Below, piece after piece: positions 59-4,203 of a stretch of 4,727 bases of DNA (the first letter of the stretch is position 1; every line of letters begins with the position of its first letter). The position numbers were made by a program, and so were the translations under genes. Source of the stretch: Escherichia coli (GTDB lineage Bacteria; Pseudomonadota; Gammaproteobacteria; Enterobacterales; Enterobacteriaceae); the NCBI RefSeq assembly GCF_011045215.1, contig NZ_CP049203.1. One strand, 5' to 3'. The notes below the pieces were generated by a model. That model was given only the letters and a program-made list of their open reading frames with translations. It was not told where the DNA came from and did not search any database.

Positions 59-808
59 TTAACGCTTATCTCGCAACTGCGCAGCTGTATCTTTATTTCT
101 CTGATCACCTCTTTGATGTAAATTTCGATGGCTCTCTTGTGCAGCCGTCTCCCAGTCACCACGATTAACTGCAGCATTGAAATTAGGAAAATCTTTAGAT
201 AACTTAGGGATACCTAAATTAAACCCCATGTCAACCAACGCTGTTTTCCTTGAATTAGAAAAACCATCATAACCAGAATACAAAGAACGCAATCCCTTCT
301 CTGTCACTTGAACATCACTAATACATAAACCGATAACAGCATTATTTGATAAATGTAAGTTCATAGGAACTTGTCTAGAATCTTTTTTAAAATTATTAAA
401 CGCCTCTGTAATTTCCTCTTTAGATGCGGAAACCTCTTTTTCCATATCATCACCATGAGCATGCCATGTATGTGTTCTTGAAAATGGAAGGGATGCAGCC
501 ATATCAGGCGTAGATAGTAAATGACCGATTCCAACAGTAATATTTCCCTCACTGTCTTTGTACATTGTGTTTTTAAAACCTTCATGAGATTTCAAATTAT
601 TAACACACATAGTCATATAAAAACCATCATAACTCCTAGTGGAGGAAATATTTATGTGTGTCTTATCAGAAATGCCCTCATGACTATTCCCTCCAGAGTG
701 TCCACCATAGCTACTATGATTATCACCATCATAACTATGAATCGTGCCATAAGGGGTATCATGATCGTGCCATCCCGGACCTTGATTAGAACTTTCAATA
801 CCGCTCAT
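59..808 (-). CDS. T4-type lysozyme (GH24 muramidase) domain protein with Gly/Ser/His-rich N-terminal extension, 249 aa; candidate SOS-inducible cell-wall-degrading bacteriocin
   Basis: Long ORF in AT-rich DNA. Start set at ATG 808-806 (Met31 of the 279-aa track ORF) because AGAGGA lies 8 nt upstream and the earlier Met codons are upstream of the LexA box; stop TAA at 61-59. Residues ~85-249 align by eye with T4 lysozyme: SHEGFKNTMYKDSEGNITVGIGHLL vs T4L [25 protein letters not shown], with Glu, Asp and Thr at T4L-equivalent spacing (E11/D20/T26); C-terminal RKTALVDMGFNLG and DWETAAQ match T4L RRAAINMVFQMG and WDEAAV. Confidence 0.85.
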   Translation of the reverse strand: MSGIESSNQGPGWHDHDTPYGTIHSYDGDNHSSYGGHSGGNSHEGISDKTHINISSTRSYDGFYMTMCVNNLKSHEGFKNTMYKDSEGNITVGIGHLLSTPDMAASLPFSRTHTWHAHGDDMEKEVSASKEEITEAFNNFKKDSRQVPMNLHLSNNAVIGLCISDVQVTEKGLRSLYSGYDGFSNSRKTALVDMGFNLGIPKLSKDFPNFNAAVNRGDWETAAQESHRNLHQRGDQRNKDTAAQLRDKR

Positions 809-844
809 ATTAATTTCCTCTTTGACTAACAAATAACAACACCA

Positions 845-898
845 CACAAAACTGTGTTTATATACAGTATACTTACGCCTCTCCATATTCCCTGTCAA
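845..898 (-). promoter_or_regulatory. Promoter region of the lysozyme-like gene: consensus -35 TTGACA (893-898); -10 ambiguous
   Basis: Minus strand reads TTGACA-gggaatatggagaggcg-TAAGTA-TACTGTATATAAACACAG. TAAGTA (870-875) gives a 17-bp spacer but is a poor -10; TATACT (866-871) is a better hexamer but gives a 21-bp spacer. The -10 cannot be fixed from sequence alone. Confidence 0.5.
850..869 (-). promoter_or_regulatory. LexA (SOS) box
   Basis: Minus strand TACTGTATATAAACACAGTT: CTGT-N8-ACAG with AT-rich spacer, 17 of 20 matches to consensus TACTGTATATATATACAGTA, placed between the -35 and the start codon as in colicin promoters. Only one box is seen; many colicins have two. Confidence 0.65.
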
Positions 899-1036
899 GA
901 ATATGGATTTTCATTTTTGTGATATAAATCAAAAAAAATCAATCGTGAGTAGTTCCAAGAGAAACATACGCGAACACTTCATCTAATCGAAAACGAGTGA
1001 AAGATATTTCCAAGAAAAATAAATAATAAGGGCTGC

Positions 1037-1072: not shown

Positions 1073-1115
1073 CGCCCCCAATAAGGCCGCCACACTACAG
1101 CTTTTGCATTAACAC

Positions 1116-1340
1116 ATTTACCATAATCCCTTAATTGTACGCACCGCTGAAACGCTCTCAGACGCTTTCTGACGCAAAAACCGTAAAAAGAGATGTTTTC
1201 CCCCGGGTAAACCGAAAAAATGCGTCAGGAACGTTTTCAGCGCGTTGCATGACTATGCATGAAACTGAATGGCGATCGGTTTGGGCGCGTCCGGTGTCTC
1301 AAAGGCTTATTTTCGGATGTTTTCGTCCTCCGGCGTCGTT
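1116..1340 (-). other. cer: cer-like Xer site-specific recombination (multimer resolution) site: XerC/XerD core 1116-1145 plus ~190 bp accessory region
   Basis: Minus strand 1145-1116 reads GGTGCGTACAA-TTAAGGGA-TTATGGTAAAT, identical to the ColE1 cer XerC arm, 8-bp central region and XerD arm as I recall them. The accessory sequences would extend rightward on the + strand; the far boundary is approximate. Confidence 0.75.
1245..1262. promoter_or_regulatory. Candidate ArgR box within the cer accessory region
   Basis: ttGCATgactATGCAtga resembles the ARG box TnTGAATwwwwATTCAnw (two half-sites, 4-bp spacer) and lies about 100 bp from the XerC arm, where cer carries its ArgR site. The match is imperfect. 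Confidence 0.3.
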
Positions 1341-1367
1341 TTTCCGGCTCCTCCTGGTGGCCAGAAG

Positions 1368-1582
1368 CAGCACCGTAACGGTGCCTGCCTCACAGTGCTG
1401 GATCCAGCACCGCAGCACCGTAAGCAGCACCGTAAAGGGAAAATCCAGCCACAATCCAGCACCATAACAGGCACCGTTACAGTGCCTGTTGTTGATTAAC
1501 ACCATGATTAATAAGGATTAGCACTGTAGCAGTGCCGGTTACAGTGCTTGATCCAGCCACAATCCGGCACCGTTGCGGTGCT
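1368..1582. repeat. Dense cluster of short palindromes and direct repeats built on GCACCG / CAGTGC, flanking an AT-rich core (1487-1520)
   Basis: CAGCACCGTAA x3 (1368-1378, 1413-1423, 1425-1435). Palindromes: gcaccgt-a-acggtgc (1370-1384), perfect 16-bp gtgctggatccagcac (1395-1410), ggcac-N7-gtgcc (1470-1486), gcactg-tag-cagtgc (1521-1535), gcaccg-ttg-cggtgc (1567-1581). Direct repeat atccagccacaatcc[a/g]gcacc at 1443-1463 and 1551-1571. Confidence 0.6.
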
Positions 1583-1832
1583 GCGTATGGCGGAAAAACG
1601 TAAATTTTGCCACCTGAAATAATTCTAATGCACTGATTCCAAAGAGAAATCATGCAAAACGCAGTTTTGCGACAGGTGTGGTGACAGCAGGTCAGAGAAG
1701 GGGCGGATTCAGATATGAATCCGGGCCAGATCCGGGCATTAAGGGGTTCCCGGAAACATGAATAAGATTGCCAGTGCACGGGGATTTTTAATCCCCTGCC
1801 CCGTTGAGCCGCTCCACGGCGAAAAGGGGAAA

Positions 1833-1852
1833 GTAAAGTTAGCTAACTTTAC
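1833..1852. repeat. Perfect 20-bp palindrome gtaaagttagctaactttac; candidate operator or minus-strand terminator hairpin
   Basis: Self-complementary over all 20 bp. On the minus strand it is followed directly by TTTCCCCTTTTC and lies about 130 nt downstream of the stop of ORF 1981-2226. Confidence 0.5.
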
Positions 1853-1980
1853 ATGTCCTGCCCGGCGTTCACCGGTGTTTATGGCGGGGAACTGAACCAC
1901 CGGACGGGTGGAAACATGTGTATTCCTGTGTGCCCCTGTGTAATCCGGTGGATTTGTGTGTGCAAAATTCCGTAGCCGGT

Positions 1981-2226
1981 TCACCTGCGCCTCGCCGGCT
2001 GCCAGGTAAACGTGTTCTCTGCGGCACGATATGCTTTTGTTCGTTGAGCCTTTGCGCTTCTCGCTCTGCGTTCTGCCCGAATCATTCTCAAAACTTTTGC
2101 ACGCACTTTTCGCTTAACTTCCCGTGGCAGCTCTTCTTTGTCGGATAACTGCAACTGCGCAGCCTGTAAGGCATACGCATCACTGATACGCTTACGTTCT
2201 GCCACTGTCAGTTTCACCCAATACAT
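1981..2226 (-). CDS. Hypothetical small basic protein (81 aa), possibly ribbon-helix-helix-like DNA-binding or relaxosome-accessory remnant
   Basis: ORF with a G-rich Shine-Dalgarno-like sequence (GGGGGATAGGT) before the ATG. The protein is strongly basic and helix-prone (KRKVRAKVLRMIRAERRARSAKAQR). Its N-terminus WVKLTVAERKRISDAYA resembles the strand-helix start of RHH proteins. No firm homology; GC-rich DNA produces chance ORFs. Confidence 0.35.
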   Translation of the reverse strand: MYWVKLTVAERKRISDAYALQAAQLQLSDKEELPREVKRKVRAKVLRMIRAERRARSAKAQRTKAYRAAENTFTWQPARRR

Positions 2227-2322
2227 ACCTATCCCCCTGGCAACTTCCCGGAGTTATGCCTTTCGCTGTTTCCTGTTCGTTGTCGTTCGTCTGAGGTGTC
2301 GAGGCTGTGCCCTGACCAGGCA

Positions 2323-2498
2323 TTTTGTAGCACTGCCGCATCGGTGGCGGTGCTACAAAACATATCCTGTCCCGTCGATGGGGCAGGATATCACGTCCGT
2401 TAGTTTTCATCGTCCGGGGTGCAGGGGTGGCACTCCTGCCAGGCGTTTTGCTGAACGGCCATCACCGATGGCGGTTCAACAAAACATATCCTGTCCCG
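2323..2498. repeat. Two ~30-bp imperfect direct repeats (2345-2374 and 2469-2498) with associated inverted repeats
   Basis: tggcggt-NNN-acaaaacatatcctgtcccg occurs twice about 124 bp apart. An 11-bp inverted repeat ttttgtagcac / gtgctacaaaa (2323-2333 / 2350-2360) overlaps the first copy, and atatcctgtccc / ggggcaggatat (2362-2373 / 2380-2391) is a 12-bp inverted repeat with one mismatch. Confidence 0.55.
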
Positions 2499-2632
2499 CC
2501 TTTGCGTTCGCCGTTCGCGCATTGATGGCCAGCTTTGGCCAGTACACTGGCCATCACGCCGGGTCACTTTGTCAGATGTTAAAAAATCACGCGGTAAACG
2601 CCGTTATGCGCGGGTTTGCGCATGAAGCTCCC

Positions 2633-2667
2633 GTGCGTCACTTTGTCAAAAAGTCAAAGTGACGCAC
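2633..2667. repeat. Perfect 13-bp inverted repeat with 9-bp spacer (gtgcgtcactttg ... caaagtgacgcac)
   Basis: 2633-2645 is the exact reverse complement of 2655-2667. No flanking T-tract on either strand, so a protein-binding site is more likely than a terminator. Confidence 0.55.
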
Positions 2668-2816
2668 ATCAGGAACCGCCGGAACGTTCGTGTTGATGAC
2701 GGCAACATGCGCACAACGCAGACAGAAAATCGCGCACATATTCAGCAAAAAATAAGCGTCACGGGGTGTTAATTTCGTGCAGCCCACGCGTGGCAGGGCT
2801 TGTGTGATAATTTTCA

Positions 2817-2852
2817 GTGACGTCACCTGGTGTGATGACCAGGTGACGCACA
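2817..2852. repeat. Inverted repeat cgtcacctggt / accaggtgacg (11-bp arms, 6-bp spacer) carrying GTGACG(T/C)CAC motifs, about 40 bp upstream of rop
   Basis: 2821-2831 pairs with 2838-2848. The 10-bp palindrome gtgacgtcac sits at 2817-2826 and GTGACGCAC at 2844-2852; the same 9-mer occurs at 2659-2667 and inverted at 2633-2641. Confidence 0.55.
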
Positions 2853-2891
2853 GGCGGACGTAATAAACACCAGTAACGGAGACGGGAGAAC

Positions 2892-3086
2892 GTGAACAAA
2901 CAGCAACAGACCGCGCTCAACATGGCGCGATTCATCAAAAGCCAGAGCCTGACATTACTCGGGAAACTTGACGCTCTGGACGCCGACGAACAGGCCACCC
3001 TGTGCGAACGGCTACACGAACTGGCGGAAGAACTCTGTGACAGCGTACAGACGCACTTTGAGGCGCAGTACAGCACGGAACCATAA
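2892..3086 (+). CDS. rop: Rop/Rom, RNA I-RNA II pairing modulator of ColE1-type replicons (64 aa, GTG start)
   Basis: MNKQQQTALNMARFIKSQSLTLLGKLDALDADEQATLCERLHELAEELC aligns along its length with pMB1/pBR322 Rop (MTKQEKTALNMARFIRSQTLTLLEKLNELDADEQADICESLHDHADELY, from memory). It is oriented toward the origin as in pBR322. Stop TAA at 3084-3086; GGAGA/GGGAGA precedes the GTG. Confidence 0.9.
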   Translation: MNKQQQTALNMARFIKSQSLTLLGKLDALDADEQATLCERLHELAEELCDSVQTHFEAQYSTEP

Positions 3087-3796
3087 CAGGGGCTGGCGAA
3101 AGCGGTCGCGGCTCGTCCGTGAGCGTTTTCGCCAGCAGACAAGCCCGGAGAGCGCGTCAGGACATGGGCTGAGAGAAACACCGGCGCGTAAGTGCTCAAA
3201 TCAGACTGGCGGAGACATTCCGCTTCCTCGCCCACTCGCTCACTACGTTCGGTCGCTGGGGCTGCGGCGAGCGGTGACGGCTCTCTCATAACGGCGGACA
3301 GTTTATCCACAGAATCGGGGGATAAGCCGGACAGAACATGTGAGCAAAAAGCACGAACAAAAAGGCCGCGGCGGGGCCGTTTTTCCATAGGCTCCGCCTC
3401 CCCCTGGCGAGCTTCACACTTTTCGAAGCTGCAAGCCTAGGATTTGACGAAACCCGATGTGGCTTCAAGATCATCACCGTTTCCGGTGAATCGCTCCCCC
3501 CTGCGACCTCCACATTCCCGCCATATCGTTTGCCGGATACCTTACCGCCTTTCCCCTTGCGGGACCGTGGCGCTTTCTCATAGCTCACGTGCATCTCTGC
3601 GGTATCTCGGGCGACTTAGGCAGTTCGCTCCAGGTCTGGCTGTATGCAGGACCCCCCCTTTCAGCCTGACTGCTGCGCCTGTTCCGGTAACTGTTCTCTT
3701 GAGGCCAACCCGGAAAGACACGCCTTAACGCCACTGGCAGCAGCCACTGGTAACTGGATTTGCAGAGCGAGATGTATACAGATGGTTACAGAGTTC

Positions 3797-3825
3797 TTGA
3801 GTAACAGCCCTCTTATGGCTACACT
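3797..3825 (+). promoter_or_regulatory. RNA I promoter (-35 TTGAGT, 17-bp spacer, -10 TACACT)
   Basis: Positionally equivalent to the pBR322 RNA I promoter (TTGAAG-N17-TACACT), with the transcript start about 7 nt downstream. Confidence 0.6.
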
Positions 3826-3831
3826 AGAGGG

Positions 3832-3940
3832 ACAGTTTTTAGGTAATCTGCGCTCTGCGATAGCCAGTTACCATTGGAACAATGAGAAGGTGAGATGTCT
3901 CATCGCTCCCGGAAAAAACCGCCTTACGGCGGTTTTTTCC
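3832..3940 (+). ncRNA. RNA I (antisense replication inhibitor)
   Basis: Begins ACAGTTTTTAGGTAATCTGCGCTCTGC (pMB1 RNA I begins ACAGTATTTGGTATCTGCGCTCTGC) and ends in the hairpin plus U-tract aaaaaaccgcc-ttac-ggcggtttttt (3913-3936). About 108 nt, antisense to the 5' end of RNA II. Confidence 0.8.
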
Positions 3941-3953
3941 GTTTACAAGCCGA

Positions 3954-3982
3954 AGATTACGCGCAGCGGCAAAGGATCTCAA
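3954..3982 (-). promoter_or_regulatory. RNA II promoter (-35 TTGAGA, 17-bp spacer, -10 TAATCT)
   Basis: Minus strand reads TTGAGA-tcctttgccgctgcgcg-TAATCT-tcggctt-G. The hexamers are identical to the pBR322 RNA II promoter. Confidence 0.7.
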
Positions 3983-4203
3983 GAGGATCTTTTGCGATCC
4001 GCCTGAAACTCATCACCGTAATTCCGTCTGTGGAATAAACGCAACCTTTTGCACATTATCGGTTAAATCATAACGAATTTGCATATACAACTGCGGTTCA
4101 AAGCCAGTAAACTGGGGGGCGAAGCCCAACCGTTACCAGCTTTGGTGACGTAATTTCCTGAAGTTCCAGCGTAGAACACCAGTTACCAAAAAACGAACAC
4201 AAC

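Follow-up and report, generated by a model that had tools for sequence, protein, structure and literature searches.

A predicted family of colicin-type plasmid bacteriocins with a T4-lysozyme-like muramidase domain

RESULTS

A gene for a lysozyme-fold protein occupies the colicin slot of a small ColE1-type plasmid

The sequence analyzed here (the window) is the complete, circular, ColE1-type plasmid of 4727 bp found in an Escherichia coli assembly as contig NZ_CP049203.1. On its minus strand it carries a gene for a 249-residue protein with a T4 lysozyme (T4L)-type domain, hereafter the toxin gene, followed across the numbering origin by the gene of a secreted partner, a putative immunity protein (Table 1). 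Positions 1116-4000 form a ColE1/Rop-type backbone that is common to thousands of plasmids, whereas for positions 1-1115 and 4000-4727 neither PLSDB nor a set of 5,426 complete E. coli genomes contains a near match. The GC content is 34.8% in the cargo (1-1000 and 4200-4727) versus 53.8% in the backbone (1100-4000). Beside the toxin module the window holds plasmid backbone only, and no phage gene, holin or spanin was found near the toxin gene.

The module fills the slot between cer and the origin of replication (ori), which is the slot of cea-imm-kil in ColE1. The gene order is cer - promoter - toxin - partner - ori here versus cer - (exc) - Pcea - cea - imm - kil - ori in ColE1. This order, together with the cer core and the promoter homology described below, therefore reproduces the ColE1 arrangement. 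The original prediction, made from the sequence alone, had placed an SOS-box gene next to cer on a ColE1 backbone, and both the exact 30-nt cer core and the homology to the cea promoter bear it out.

Table 1. Features of the 4727-bp plasmid
Feature	Position	Strand	Remarks
Perfect 14-bp stem-loop	3-39	-	Between the toxin stop codon and the partner gene; -17.8 kcal/mol, z = -3.9, 0/200 shuffles as stable
Toxin gene	59-808	-	ATG 808-806, TAA 61-59; 249 aa, 27.6 kDa; without signal peptide
T4-lysozyme-type (GH24) muramidase domain (predicted)	62-622	-	aa 63-249; predicted from Pfam, phmmer, hhalign and AlphaFold/Foldseek
N-terminal module, putative translocation domain	623-808	-	aa 1-62; Ser/Gly/His-rich, mostly disordered; conserved motif NQGPGWHDHDTPYGTIHSYD
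Ribosome-binding site GAGGAA	815-820	-	6 nt before the ATG; GTCAAAGAGGAAAT context kept in most relatives
LexA (SOS) box TACTGTATATAAACACAGTT	850-869	-	Coding-strand 20-mer; directly downstream of the -10
Candidate -10 hexamer TAAGTA, weak	870-875	-	17-nt spacer to the -35; abuts the LexA box; assignment inferred
-35 hexamer TTGACA (perfect)	893-898	-	Read from the sequence; conserved upstream of family members; inside the ColE1-like stretch 851-937
cer XerCD core site	1116-1145	-	Exact 30-nt ColE1 sequence; one edge of the cargo slot
ColE1-type replication origin region	3218-3993	+	76% identical to ColE1 594-1364; other edge of the cargo slot
Partner (putative immunity) gene	4204-4709	-	ATG 4709, Shine-Dalgarno sequence GGGGGAG 4712-4718; directly downstream of the toxin gene across the numbering origin
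T9 homopolymer run, coding strand	4689-4697	-	Frameshift in the partner signal-peptide region

The C-terminal domain has the fold and catalytic residues of T4 lysozyme

Residues ~63-249 of the toxin have an established T4L fold with the T4L catalytic triad. They match Pfam PF00959 (residues ~73-234, E 4e-8), the sole Pfam match of the protein, as well as a PHROG endolysin family (E 3e-12) and PHROG tail-lysozyme families. A phmmer search of PDB sequences returned T4L at E ~1e-6, and hhalign of the toxin family profile with T4L gave a probability of 97.5% (E 5e-12). The AlphaFold model has a pLDDT of ~90 for residues 50-250, and its top 50 PDB matches in Foldseek are all T4L or T4L fusions, with a TM score of ~0.68 normalized to T4L. 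In the HMMER alignment Glu76, Asp85 and Thr91 correspond to Glu11, Asp20 and Thr26 of T4L with identical 9- and 6-residue spacing, and all three are invariant in 32 family members. The likeness to T4L and the spacing of the Glu/Asp/Thr residues had both been recognized in the original prediction, which had also suggested a profile search against GH24 lysozymes and a structure prediction as checks; the matches of Pfam, phmmer, hhalign and AlphaFold/Foldseek all agree with it.

Relative to T4L, the model has a family-specific beta-hairpin insertion at residues ~111-128. We found no signal peptide, signal-arrest-release (SAR) sequence or hydrophobic segment in the toxin, the N-terminus of which is hydrophilic. 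Residues 63-249 are predicted to be the C-terminal cytotoxic domain of the protein, with muramidase activity.

The toxin gene has a colicin E1-like promoter with an SOS box

The near-consensus LexA box and the perfect TTGACA -35 hexamer that had been proposed for this gene are both present. The box, TACTGTATATAAACACAGTT, matches the LexA consensus TACTGTATATATATACAGTA at 17 of 20 positions, and its CTGT-N8-ACAG core lies at 852-867, a 16-nt pattern expected by shuffling only 0.06 times per window. Window positions 851-937 share 79% identity with ColE1 4990-5079. In ColE1 this stretch immediately precedes the colicin E1 gene cea (start 5140), and the similarity indicates that the promoter and SOS box are homologous to the cea promoter. 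A generic consensus promoter scanner did not call the toxin promoter, which we attribute to its weak -10 hexamer.

A LexA box accompanied by a TTGACA -35 is found upstream of the toxin gene in most of the loci that we compared (an exact match in 11 of 16 and a near-match in one more). Double overlapping LexA boxes in the style of colicins occur in loci L009, L010 and L019, and plasmid p1303_5 of E. coli 1303 (L001) has two boxes arranged in this way as well, each deviating from the pattern by one base.

A second exact CTGT-N8-ACAG match (CTGTGACAGCGTACAG) lies at 3035-3050, within a rop-like open reading frame (ORF; 2892-3086). Since its core is GC-rich, it is inside this ORF and it has no promoter context, it is probably a chance occurrence. 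At 882-907, an inverted repeat (TCCATATTC...GAATATGGA) surrounds the -35 hexamer and is followed by a run of T on the plus strand. This element, called terminator-like by a scanner, is absent from p1303_5, and it might insulate the toxin promoter from read-through from the cer side.

Relatives of the toxin are encoded in colicin-type operons

The toxin belongs to a family of ~250-aa proteins that comprises 45 database clusters and 74 plasmid records. Its hosts include Escherichia, Klebsiella, Enterobacter, Raoultella, Citrobacter, Salmonella, Shigella, Rahnella, Kosakonia and Lonsdalea, and individual sequences are present on 700 to 1000 or more contigs. We found no description of this family in the full texts that we searched, a set with few subscription journals.

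We regard the operon context of these relatives, as read from their sequences, as the decisive evidence for the interpretation of the family as bacteriocins. In p1303_5, the toxin of which is 87.6% identical to that of the window, the toxin gene, a secreted ~160-aa ORF and then the gene of a colicin-release lysis lipoprotein follow each other on one strand. The same order of toxin, secreted partner and lysis gene is found in Klebsiella plasmids of 3.9 kb (toxin 64% identical), in two Raoultella plasmids and in pD120-1_3kb. The lysis lipoprotein of the relatives is either annotated or recognizable (...LxGCQANYIRDVQGG...), and its gene was found in L001, L002, L014, L015 and L018.

A different neighborhood was observed on an IncF plasmid of Klebsiella michiganensis (L003, 2756-5759), where the toxin gene lies ~570 bp from a divergent gene with an S-type pyocin domain. 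This proximity points to an island of bacteriocin genes on a large conjugative plasmid.

One lysozyme domain is combined with several unrelated N-terminal modules

Only ~62 residues precede the lysozyme domain, which leaves no room for a receptor-binding domain and makes the architecture as unusually compact as had been anticipated. In the AlphaFold model residues 1-62 have a pLDDT below 56, and they contain no folded domain and no Pfam domain. Their motif, SNQGPGW.DH.TPYG.IHSYDG, is invariant or near-invariant in 17 members. In the window it reads NQGPGWHDHDTPYGTIHSYD and aligns with residues 42-62 of cloacin DF13 (NSGPGWGTTHTPNGDIHNYN), which fall inside the N-terminal region of cloacin, in its translocation domain. 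The two are identical at 11 of 20 positions, and none of 2000 shuffles reached the score; this link to cloacin is a 20-residue motif that comes from direct pairwise comparison only.

Across the family the lysozyme domain is 50-90% identical, and the N-terminal ~60 residues exist in at least six unrelated versions. One sibling, P0036, which is carried by ~4.7-kb plasmids in E. coli, E. albertii, Klebsiella and Shigella, starts with MPGFNYGGHGDGTGWSSERG. Over residues 1-18 it shares 94% identity with the N-termini of colicins A, Y and R, which are annotated as pore-formers; this segment carries the TolB box of these colicins. The colicin A/Y/R-type N-terminus of the siblings contains DGTGWSSE; the QGPGW of the window toxin is not a canonical TolB box. 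It is a hallmark of colicin-like bacteriocins that N-terminal uptake modules are swapped while the warhead stays the same, and the presence of at least six such modules on one lysozyme domain is hard to reconcile with a role as endolysin.

We also considered whether the GPGW module is portable. A profile of the module searched against 1.84 billion representative proteins returned family members or their fragments, together with two long repetitive proteins that look spurious, and tblastn of the GPGW N-terminus against plasmids returned family members only. In these searches, the module is not demonstrably common to other toxin classes.

Two unrelated families of secreted partners accompany the toxins

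The partner of the window belongs to a type of ~160 aa, encoded on the same strand as the toxin, that we found on 46 plasmids, always next to the toxin gene and nowhere else. This type contains a VCKISITTGNT motif as well as two conserved cysteines, and searches of Pfam, NCBIfam, PHROGs and PDB sequences returned no match. The partners of the window and of p1303_5 are 55% identical, to be compared with the 87.6% identity of the toxins, and the partner has thus diverged much faster. The stem-loop that separates the toxin and partner genes is also present in p1303_5, and is possibly an attenuator or an mRNA stabilizer.

A second family of secreted partners, of ~212 aa and ending in ...LDENS.., is encoded convergently, right after the toxin gene (L003, L006, L009, L010, L011, L013, L016, L018 and L021). 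In L018 it occurs together with a Lysis_col gene. These convergent partners are paired with toxins of the GPGW type, of the colicin A type and with other N-terminal variants. They are unrelated to the same-strand partner and have no Pfam, NCBIfam or PHROG match. Both families carry signal peptides. Since a Sec signal peptide is present in every adjacent partner, protection would be placed in the periplasm, where the peptidoglycan is.

The state of the copy in the window

By inspection, the full-length product of the window partner gene, read from ATG 4709, has a Sec-type signal peptide, MLKRFFFCAMILFSGSIYA, followed by SV... The T9 run in this region leaves an upstream ORF of nine codons (MLKRFFFVQ and a stop), the TGA of which overlaps the ATG (4683) of the annotated 159-aa ORF (4204-4683) as ATGA. 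The same T9 is found in a JGI contig (L004, Ga0557493_097076), and a run of ten, which restores the frame, is found in a short-read Logan contig (L005, four samples). The run may be an error of sequencing or a real lesion, or it may act as a slippage-prone switch. In the JGI contig, the partner copy (~1495-1974) has two in-frame stop codons besides the T9 and the toxin differs by one residue, which reflects either a low-quality assembly or decay of the immunity with the toxin kept.

Neither tblastn nor a lipobox motif search detected a lysis gene in the window, and none lies between the origin region and the partner gene. The homology to the p1303_5 operon stops at ~4249, still within the 3' end of the partner gene, and the last 13 residues of the window partner (NGGSDRVAANGDK) form a different tail. 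On a partly different backbone, the Logan contig L005 contains this same truncated module.

A tentative explanation, compatible with a bacteriocin function of the family at large, is that this copy is a bacteriocin by descent which is decaying or disarmed, and which would be poorly released and confer little killing or immunity. The absence of lysis-protein similarity anywhere in the window, the end of the p1303_5 homology at ~4249 with its altered C-terminal tail, and a T9 that breaks the frame in two independent assemblies, one of them with two more stops, all point in this direction. However, the toxin ORF is intact and 99-100% conserved over three independent assemblies. The short-read T10 assembly encodes an intact, 168-aa-equivalent partner, so that the T9 may be a homopolymer sequencing error, and even with the T9 the ATGA stop-start overlap could still allow a coupled product to be made, the signal peptide of which would be shortened. 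Moreover, pesticin and the group B colicins work without lysis genes (PMC3390615). We consider decay of this copy possible but rather unlikely. Because of the missing lysis gene and the T9 run, our confidence in the full function of this copy is lower than for the family.

Other features of the plasmid

Between cer and the remaining backbone, positions 1369-1581 contain five copies of a 16-nt palindromic unit (GCACCGTnACnGTGC) and several longer inverted repeats, which may be a protein-binding array. At gathering thresholds, Rfam detected no RNA family in the window, RNAI included, despite the ColE1-like origin.

DISCUSSION

The lysozyme fold with its catalytic residues, the promoter motifs and their homology to a colicin promoter, the synteny, the signal peptides of the partners and the shuffling of N-terminal modules are shown by the analyses above. 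From these sequence comparisons, we think it likely that the family consists of colicin-type bacteriocins with a T4-lysozyme-like muramidase as killing domain.

Induction, release, uptake, killing and immunity would then proceed as follows. As suggested by the motif and the homology, LexA would repress the colicin E1-like promoter and DNA damage would derepress it. The toxin, which has no signal peptide, should therefore accumulate harmlessly in the cytoplasm of the producer, away from the peptidoglycan. In most relatives the colicin lysis lipoprotein would release it; where the lysis gene has been lost, as in the lineage of the window, release would need leakage, cell death or a lysis function provided in trans. 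At the target cell, the disordered tag of ~60 residues would probably thread through a porin and engage the Tol system, so that the lysozyme domain reaches the periplasm. We propose a Tol-type import because of the cloacin DF13-like motif, the siblings with the TolB-box segment of colicins A, Y and R, and the organization as a small plasmid with a lysis gene, which is typical of Tol-dependent colicins. Glu76, Asp85 and Thr91 would then hydrolyze the glycan strands and the cell would lyse. That a T4L domain can serve as the warhead of a bacteriocin is known from a pesticin-T4L chimera, which is imported and kills (PMC3390615).

Finally, the co-transcribed and Sec-exported partner of ~150 aa would guard cells that bear the plasmid, acting in their periplasm and most probably through binding to the lysozyme domain. 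In favor of this role are its strict synteny with the toxin gene, its signal peptide and the parallel with Pim, the immunity protein of pesticin. A more speculative mechanism comes from structure prediction, in which the same-strand partner appears to adopt a fold like that of the TolA C-terminal domain. TolA and HasB entries recur lower down the list of structure matches of the partner model, and a Foldseek search likewise put 1tol in first place, although weakly (E 0.7). We did not find this similarity at the sequence level: hhalign of the partner with residues 301-421 of E. coli TolA gave a probability of 0.5%, and TolA was absent from the results of the PDB-sequence profile search and of Pfam. 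If the modeled fold is right, the partner, once secreted, could mimic the C-terminal domain of TolA and serve in the periplasm as a decoy, which would catch the translocation segment of the toxin and block import rather than the enzyme, by analogy with the capture of colicin A or of phage g3p by TolA. Taken more broadly, the family would be a widespread class of so far unrecognized "natural lysocins" of E. coli, Klebsiella and Enterobacter that lack a receptor domain. Among colicin-like bacteriocins, we know of no immunity that works by a decoy. The idea of a decoy for the GPGW motif in particular is weakened by the presence of the TolA-like partner beside toxins with unrelated N-termini (L019 and L020). 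The lysozyme domain is what the toxins of the same-strand partner have in common; immunity by binding to the enzyme is therefore our default, and we consider the decoy improbable.

An endolysin-like lysis function of the plasmid had been named in the original prediction as the alternative to a bacteriocin. In this alternative, the module would be an autolysis system in which an SOS-induced endolysin acts on the producer itself and releases plasmid DNA or other colicins, the secreted partner serving as a timing brake. The presence of a GH24 lysozyme under predicted SOS control is consistent with this scenario, and the membrane-damaging lysis lipoprotein that relatives co-express could give the enzyme access to the wall. 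However, an endolysin needs no conserved disordered extension of 60 residues, least of all one of the colicin A/Y/R type or one that resembles cloacin. There is no holin, SAR or signal sequence, the lineage of the window keeps the toxin without any lysis gene, and a periplasmic inhibitor made from the same transcript would defeat the purpose. Promoter homology, the colicin operons of the relatives, swapped N-termini and a secreted partner all favor a bacteriocin, as originally preferred, and we judge autolysis to be very unlikely.

The remnant of a phage lysis cassette with no current role is the least credible explanation: the toxin does match Phage_lysozyme of Pfam and, among the PHROGs, endolysin and tail-lysozyme families, but its best phage matches are ~30% identical and limited to the catalytic domain (tblastn against 50,697 phage records gave nothing above ~31% identity, and we reject a recent phage origin on this basis), no phage genes lie nearby, and the family, always with a secreted partner, remains 50-90% identical across Escherichia, Klebsiella, Enterobacter, Raoultella, Citrobacter, Rahnella, Kosakonia and Lonsdalea, with individual sequences on 700 to 1000 or more contigs.

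Several points weigh against the bacteriocin interpretation. All database names of family members are "hypothetical", "glycoside hydrolase (family)" or "phage(-related) lysozyme", and none is a bacteriocin. The -10 element of the toxin promoter is weak, and an obvious LexA box is missing in 4 of the 16 loci. A recognizable receptor-binding domain is missing, and since the GPGW module is found on no other toxin class among 1.84 billion representative proteins, its role in import is argued from the 20-residue likeness to cloacin and from the siblings. Lastly, this plasmid has no lysis gene, and together with the frameshift in the signal peptide of the partner this means that the copy may be impaired.

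If our interpretation is correct, colicin-type plasmids would have a third kind of attack on the cell wall, beside the cleavage of lipid II by colicin M and pesticin. The delivered protein would be little more than an import tag of ~60 residues and a T4-type lysozyme, and would represent a minimal natural route for a folded 20-kDa enzyme across the Gram-negative outer membrane, which engineers imitate with pesticin-T4L hybrids and "lysocins". With at least six N-terminal tags that are interchangeable on one warhead, the family would amount to a natural experiment on uptake routes, and the two unrelated families of secreted partners would be candidate new inhibitors of GH24 lysozymes, one of them with a TolA-like predicted fold. 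The family is common in clinical and livestock E. coli, Klebsiella, Enterobacter, Raoultella and Salmonella, and its annotation as hypothetical protein or phage lysozyme means that it has been missed by bacteriocin surveys and studies of plasmid ecology. What would be new here, judging from sequence, is a GH24 warhead in an operon of the colicin type, joined to a minimal import tag and accompanied by new secreted partners, which extends an established paradigm. Widespread and unannotated, the family should be informative on the mechanism of minimal protein import.

Comparison with known systems

Pesticin and its immunity protein Pim, from plasmid pPCP1 of Yersinia pestis, resemble the present system in their ColE1-type plasmid, in the T4L-fold muramidase warhead and in the adjacent periplasmic immunity protein, which is putative here (PMC3390615; pPCP1 annotation). 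The version in the window shares with pesticin the lack of a lysis gene, and the arrangement of pesticin and Pim is that of the family loci with a convergent ~212-aa partner. However, pesticin is a 357-aa protein that carries a TonB box and a folded domain for binding to FyuA; the toxin is 108 residues shorter and has a disordered N-terminal module only. Most relatives also differ from pesticin in carrying a colicin lysis gene and a double SOS box of the colicin E type. The catalytic domains, residues ~165-357 in the case of pesticin, are distant relatives only: hhalign of the toxin family with pesticin gave a probability of 27% over 44 columns only, compared with 97.5% for T4L, and blastp found 26% identity over 95 aa (E 3e-4) with no similarity to pesticin residues 1-165. 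Native pesticin is not among the top fold matches of the toxin model, and blastp of either partner type against Pim gave E values of 0.06 or more. Together with a Pfam match to PF00959 only and the absence of a TonB/FyuA module and of a Pim-like partner, the hhalign and blastp results rule out membership of the pesticin family. A small plasmid of E. coli ED1a has been reported to encode a "pesticin" and an immunity protein (bioRxiv 10.64898/2026.07.22.739985), which could be a member of the present family or a true pesticin homologue.

The group A (Tol-dependent) colicins E1, A, Y and R and cloacin DF13, which reside on small ColE1-type plasmids, share the operon plan, with a TTGACA/LexA promoter, toxin, immunity (putative in the present family) and lysis lipoprotein, as well as the location between cer and ori and, in particular, a cea-like promoter. 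They also share a disordered Gly/Ser-rich N-terminus, with a motif in common with cloacin DF13 and the N-terminus of colicins A, Y and R in siblings. They differ in their killing domain, a pore-former or nuclease where the present family has a lysozyme, and in their central receptor-binding domain, which is lacking here, as is the lysis gene in the window. In addition, the immunity proteins of group A colicins are cytoplasmic or membrane-integral, whereas the putative immunity protein described here is secreted.

Pectocin P of Pectobacterium and TelB of Klebsiella telomere phages have a comparable plan: they are smallish bacteriocins that join an uptake module of a non-colicin kind to a lysozyme-fold domain, which degrades peptidoglycan (PMC3302902; PMC12042878). 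Pectocin P differs by its ferredoxin uptake domain and by a pesticin-type domain that is 41% identical to pesticin. Telocin TelB (WP_110096654.1) is set apart by its description as pesticin-like and phage-borne, and a distant relationship is possible.

Colicin Z is similar in size (237 aa), SOS-inducible from a single SOS box, encoded on a plasmid of ~4 kb (pColZ) and degrades peptidoglycan (PMC6668396). Yet it has no similarity to lysozyme, depends on CjrBC/ExbBD for uptake and is encoded on a different replicon, which itself has no lysis gene. Its immunity protein is a convergently encoded inner-membrane protein that crosses this membrane four times and has no signal peptide, unlike the secreted partner (PMC6668396). 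The toxin is thus not colicin Z, from which it differs in protein, immunity type and uptake route (PMC6668396).

The engineered hybrid of pesticin and T4 lysozyme has the same plan as the one that we propose, an import module joined to a T4L domain that kills Gram-negative bacteria from outside (PMC3390615), and its structure (PDB 4epi) is among the phmmer and Foldseek matches of the toxin. That hybrid is man-made and relies on the TonB/FyuA module of pesticin, whereas the present family is natural, shorter and equipped with its own putative immunity proteins.

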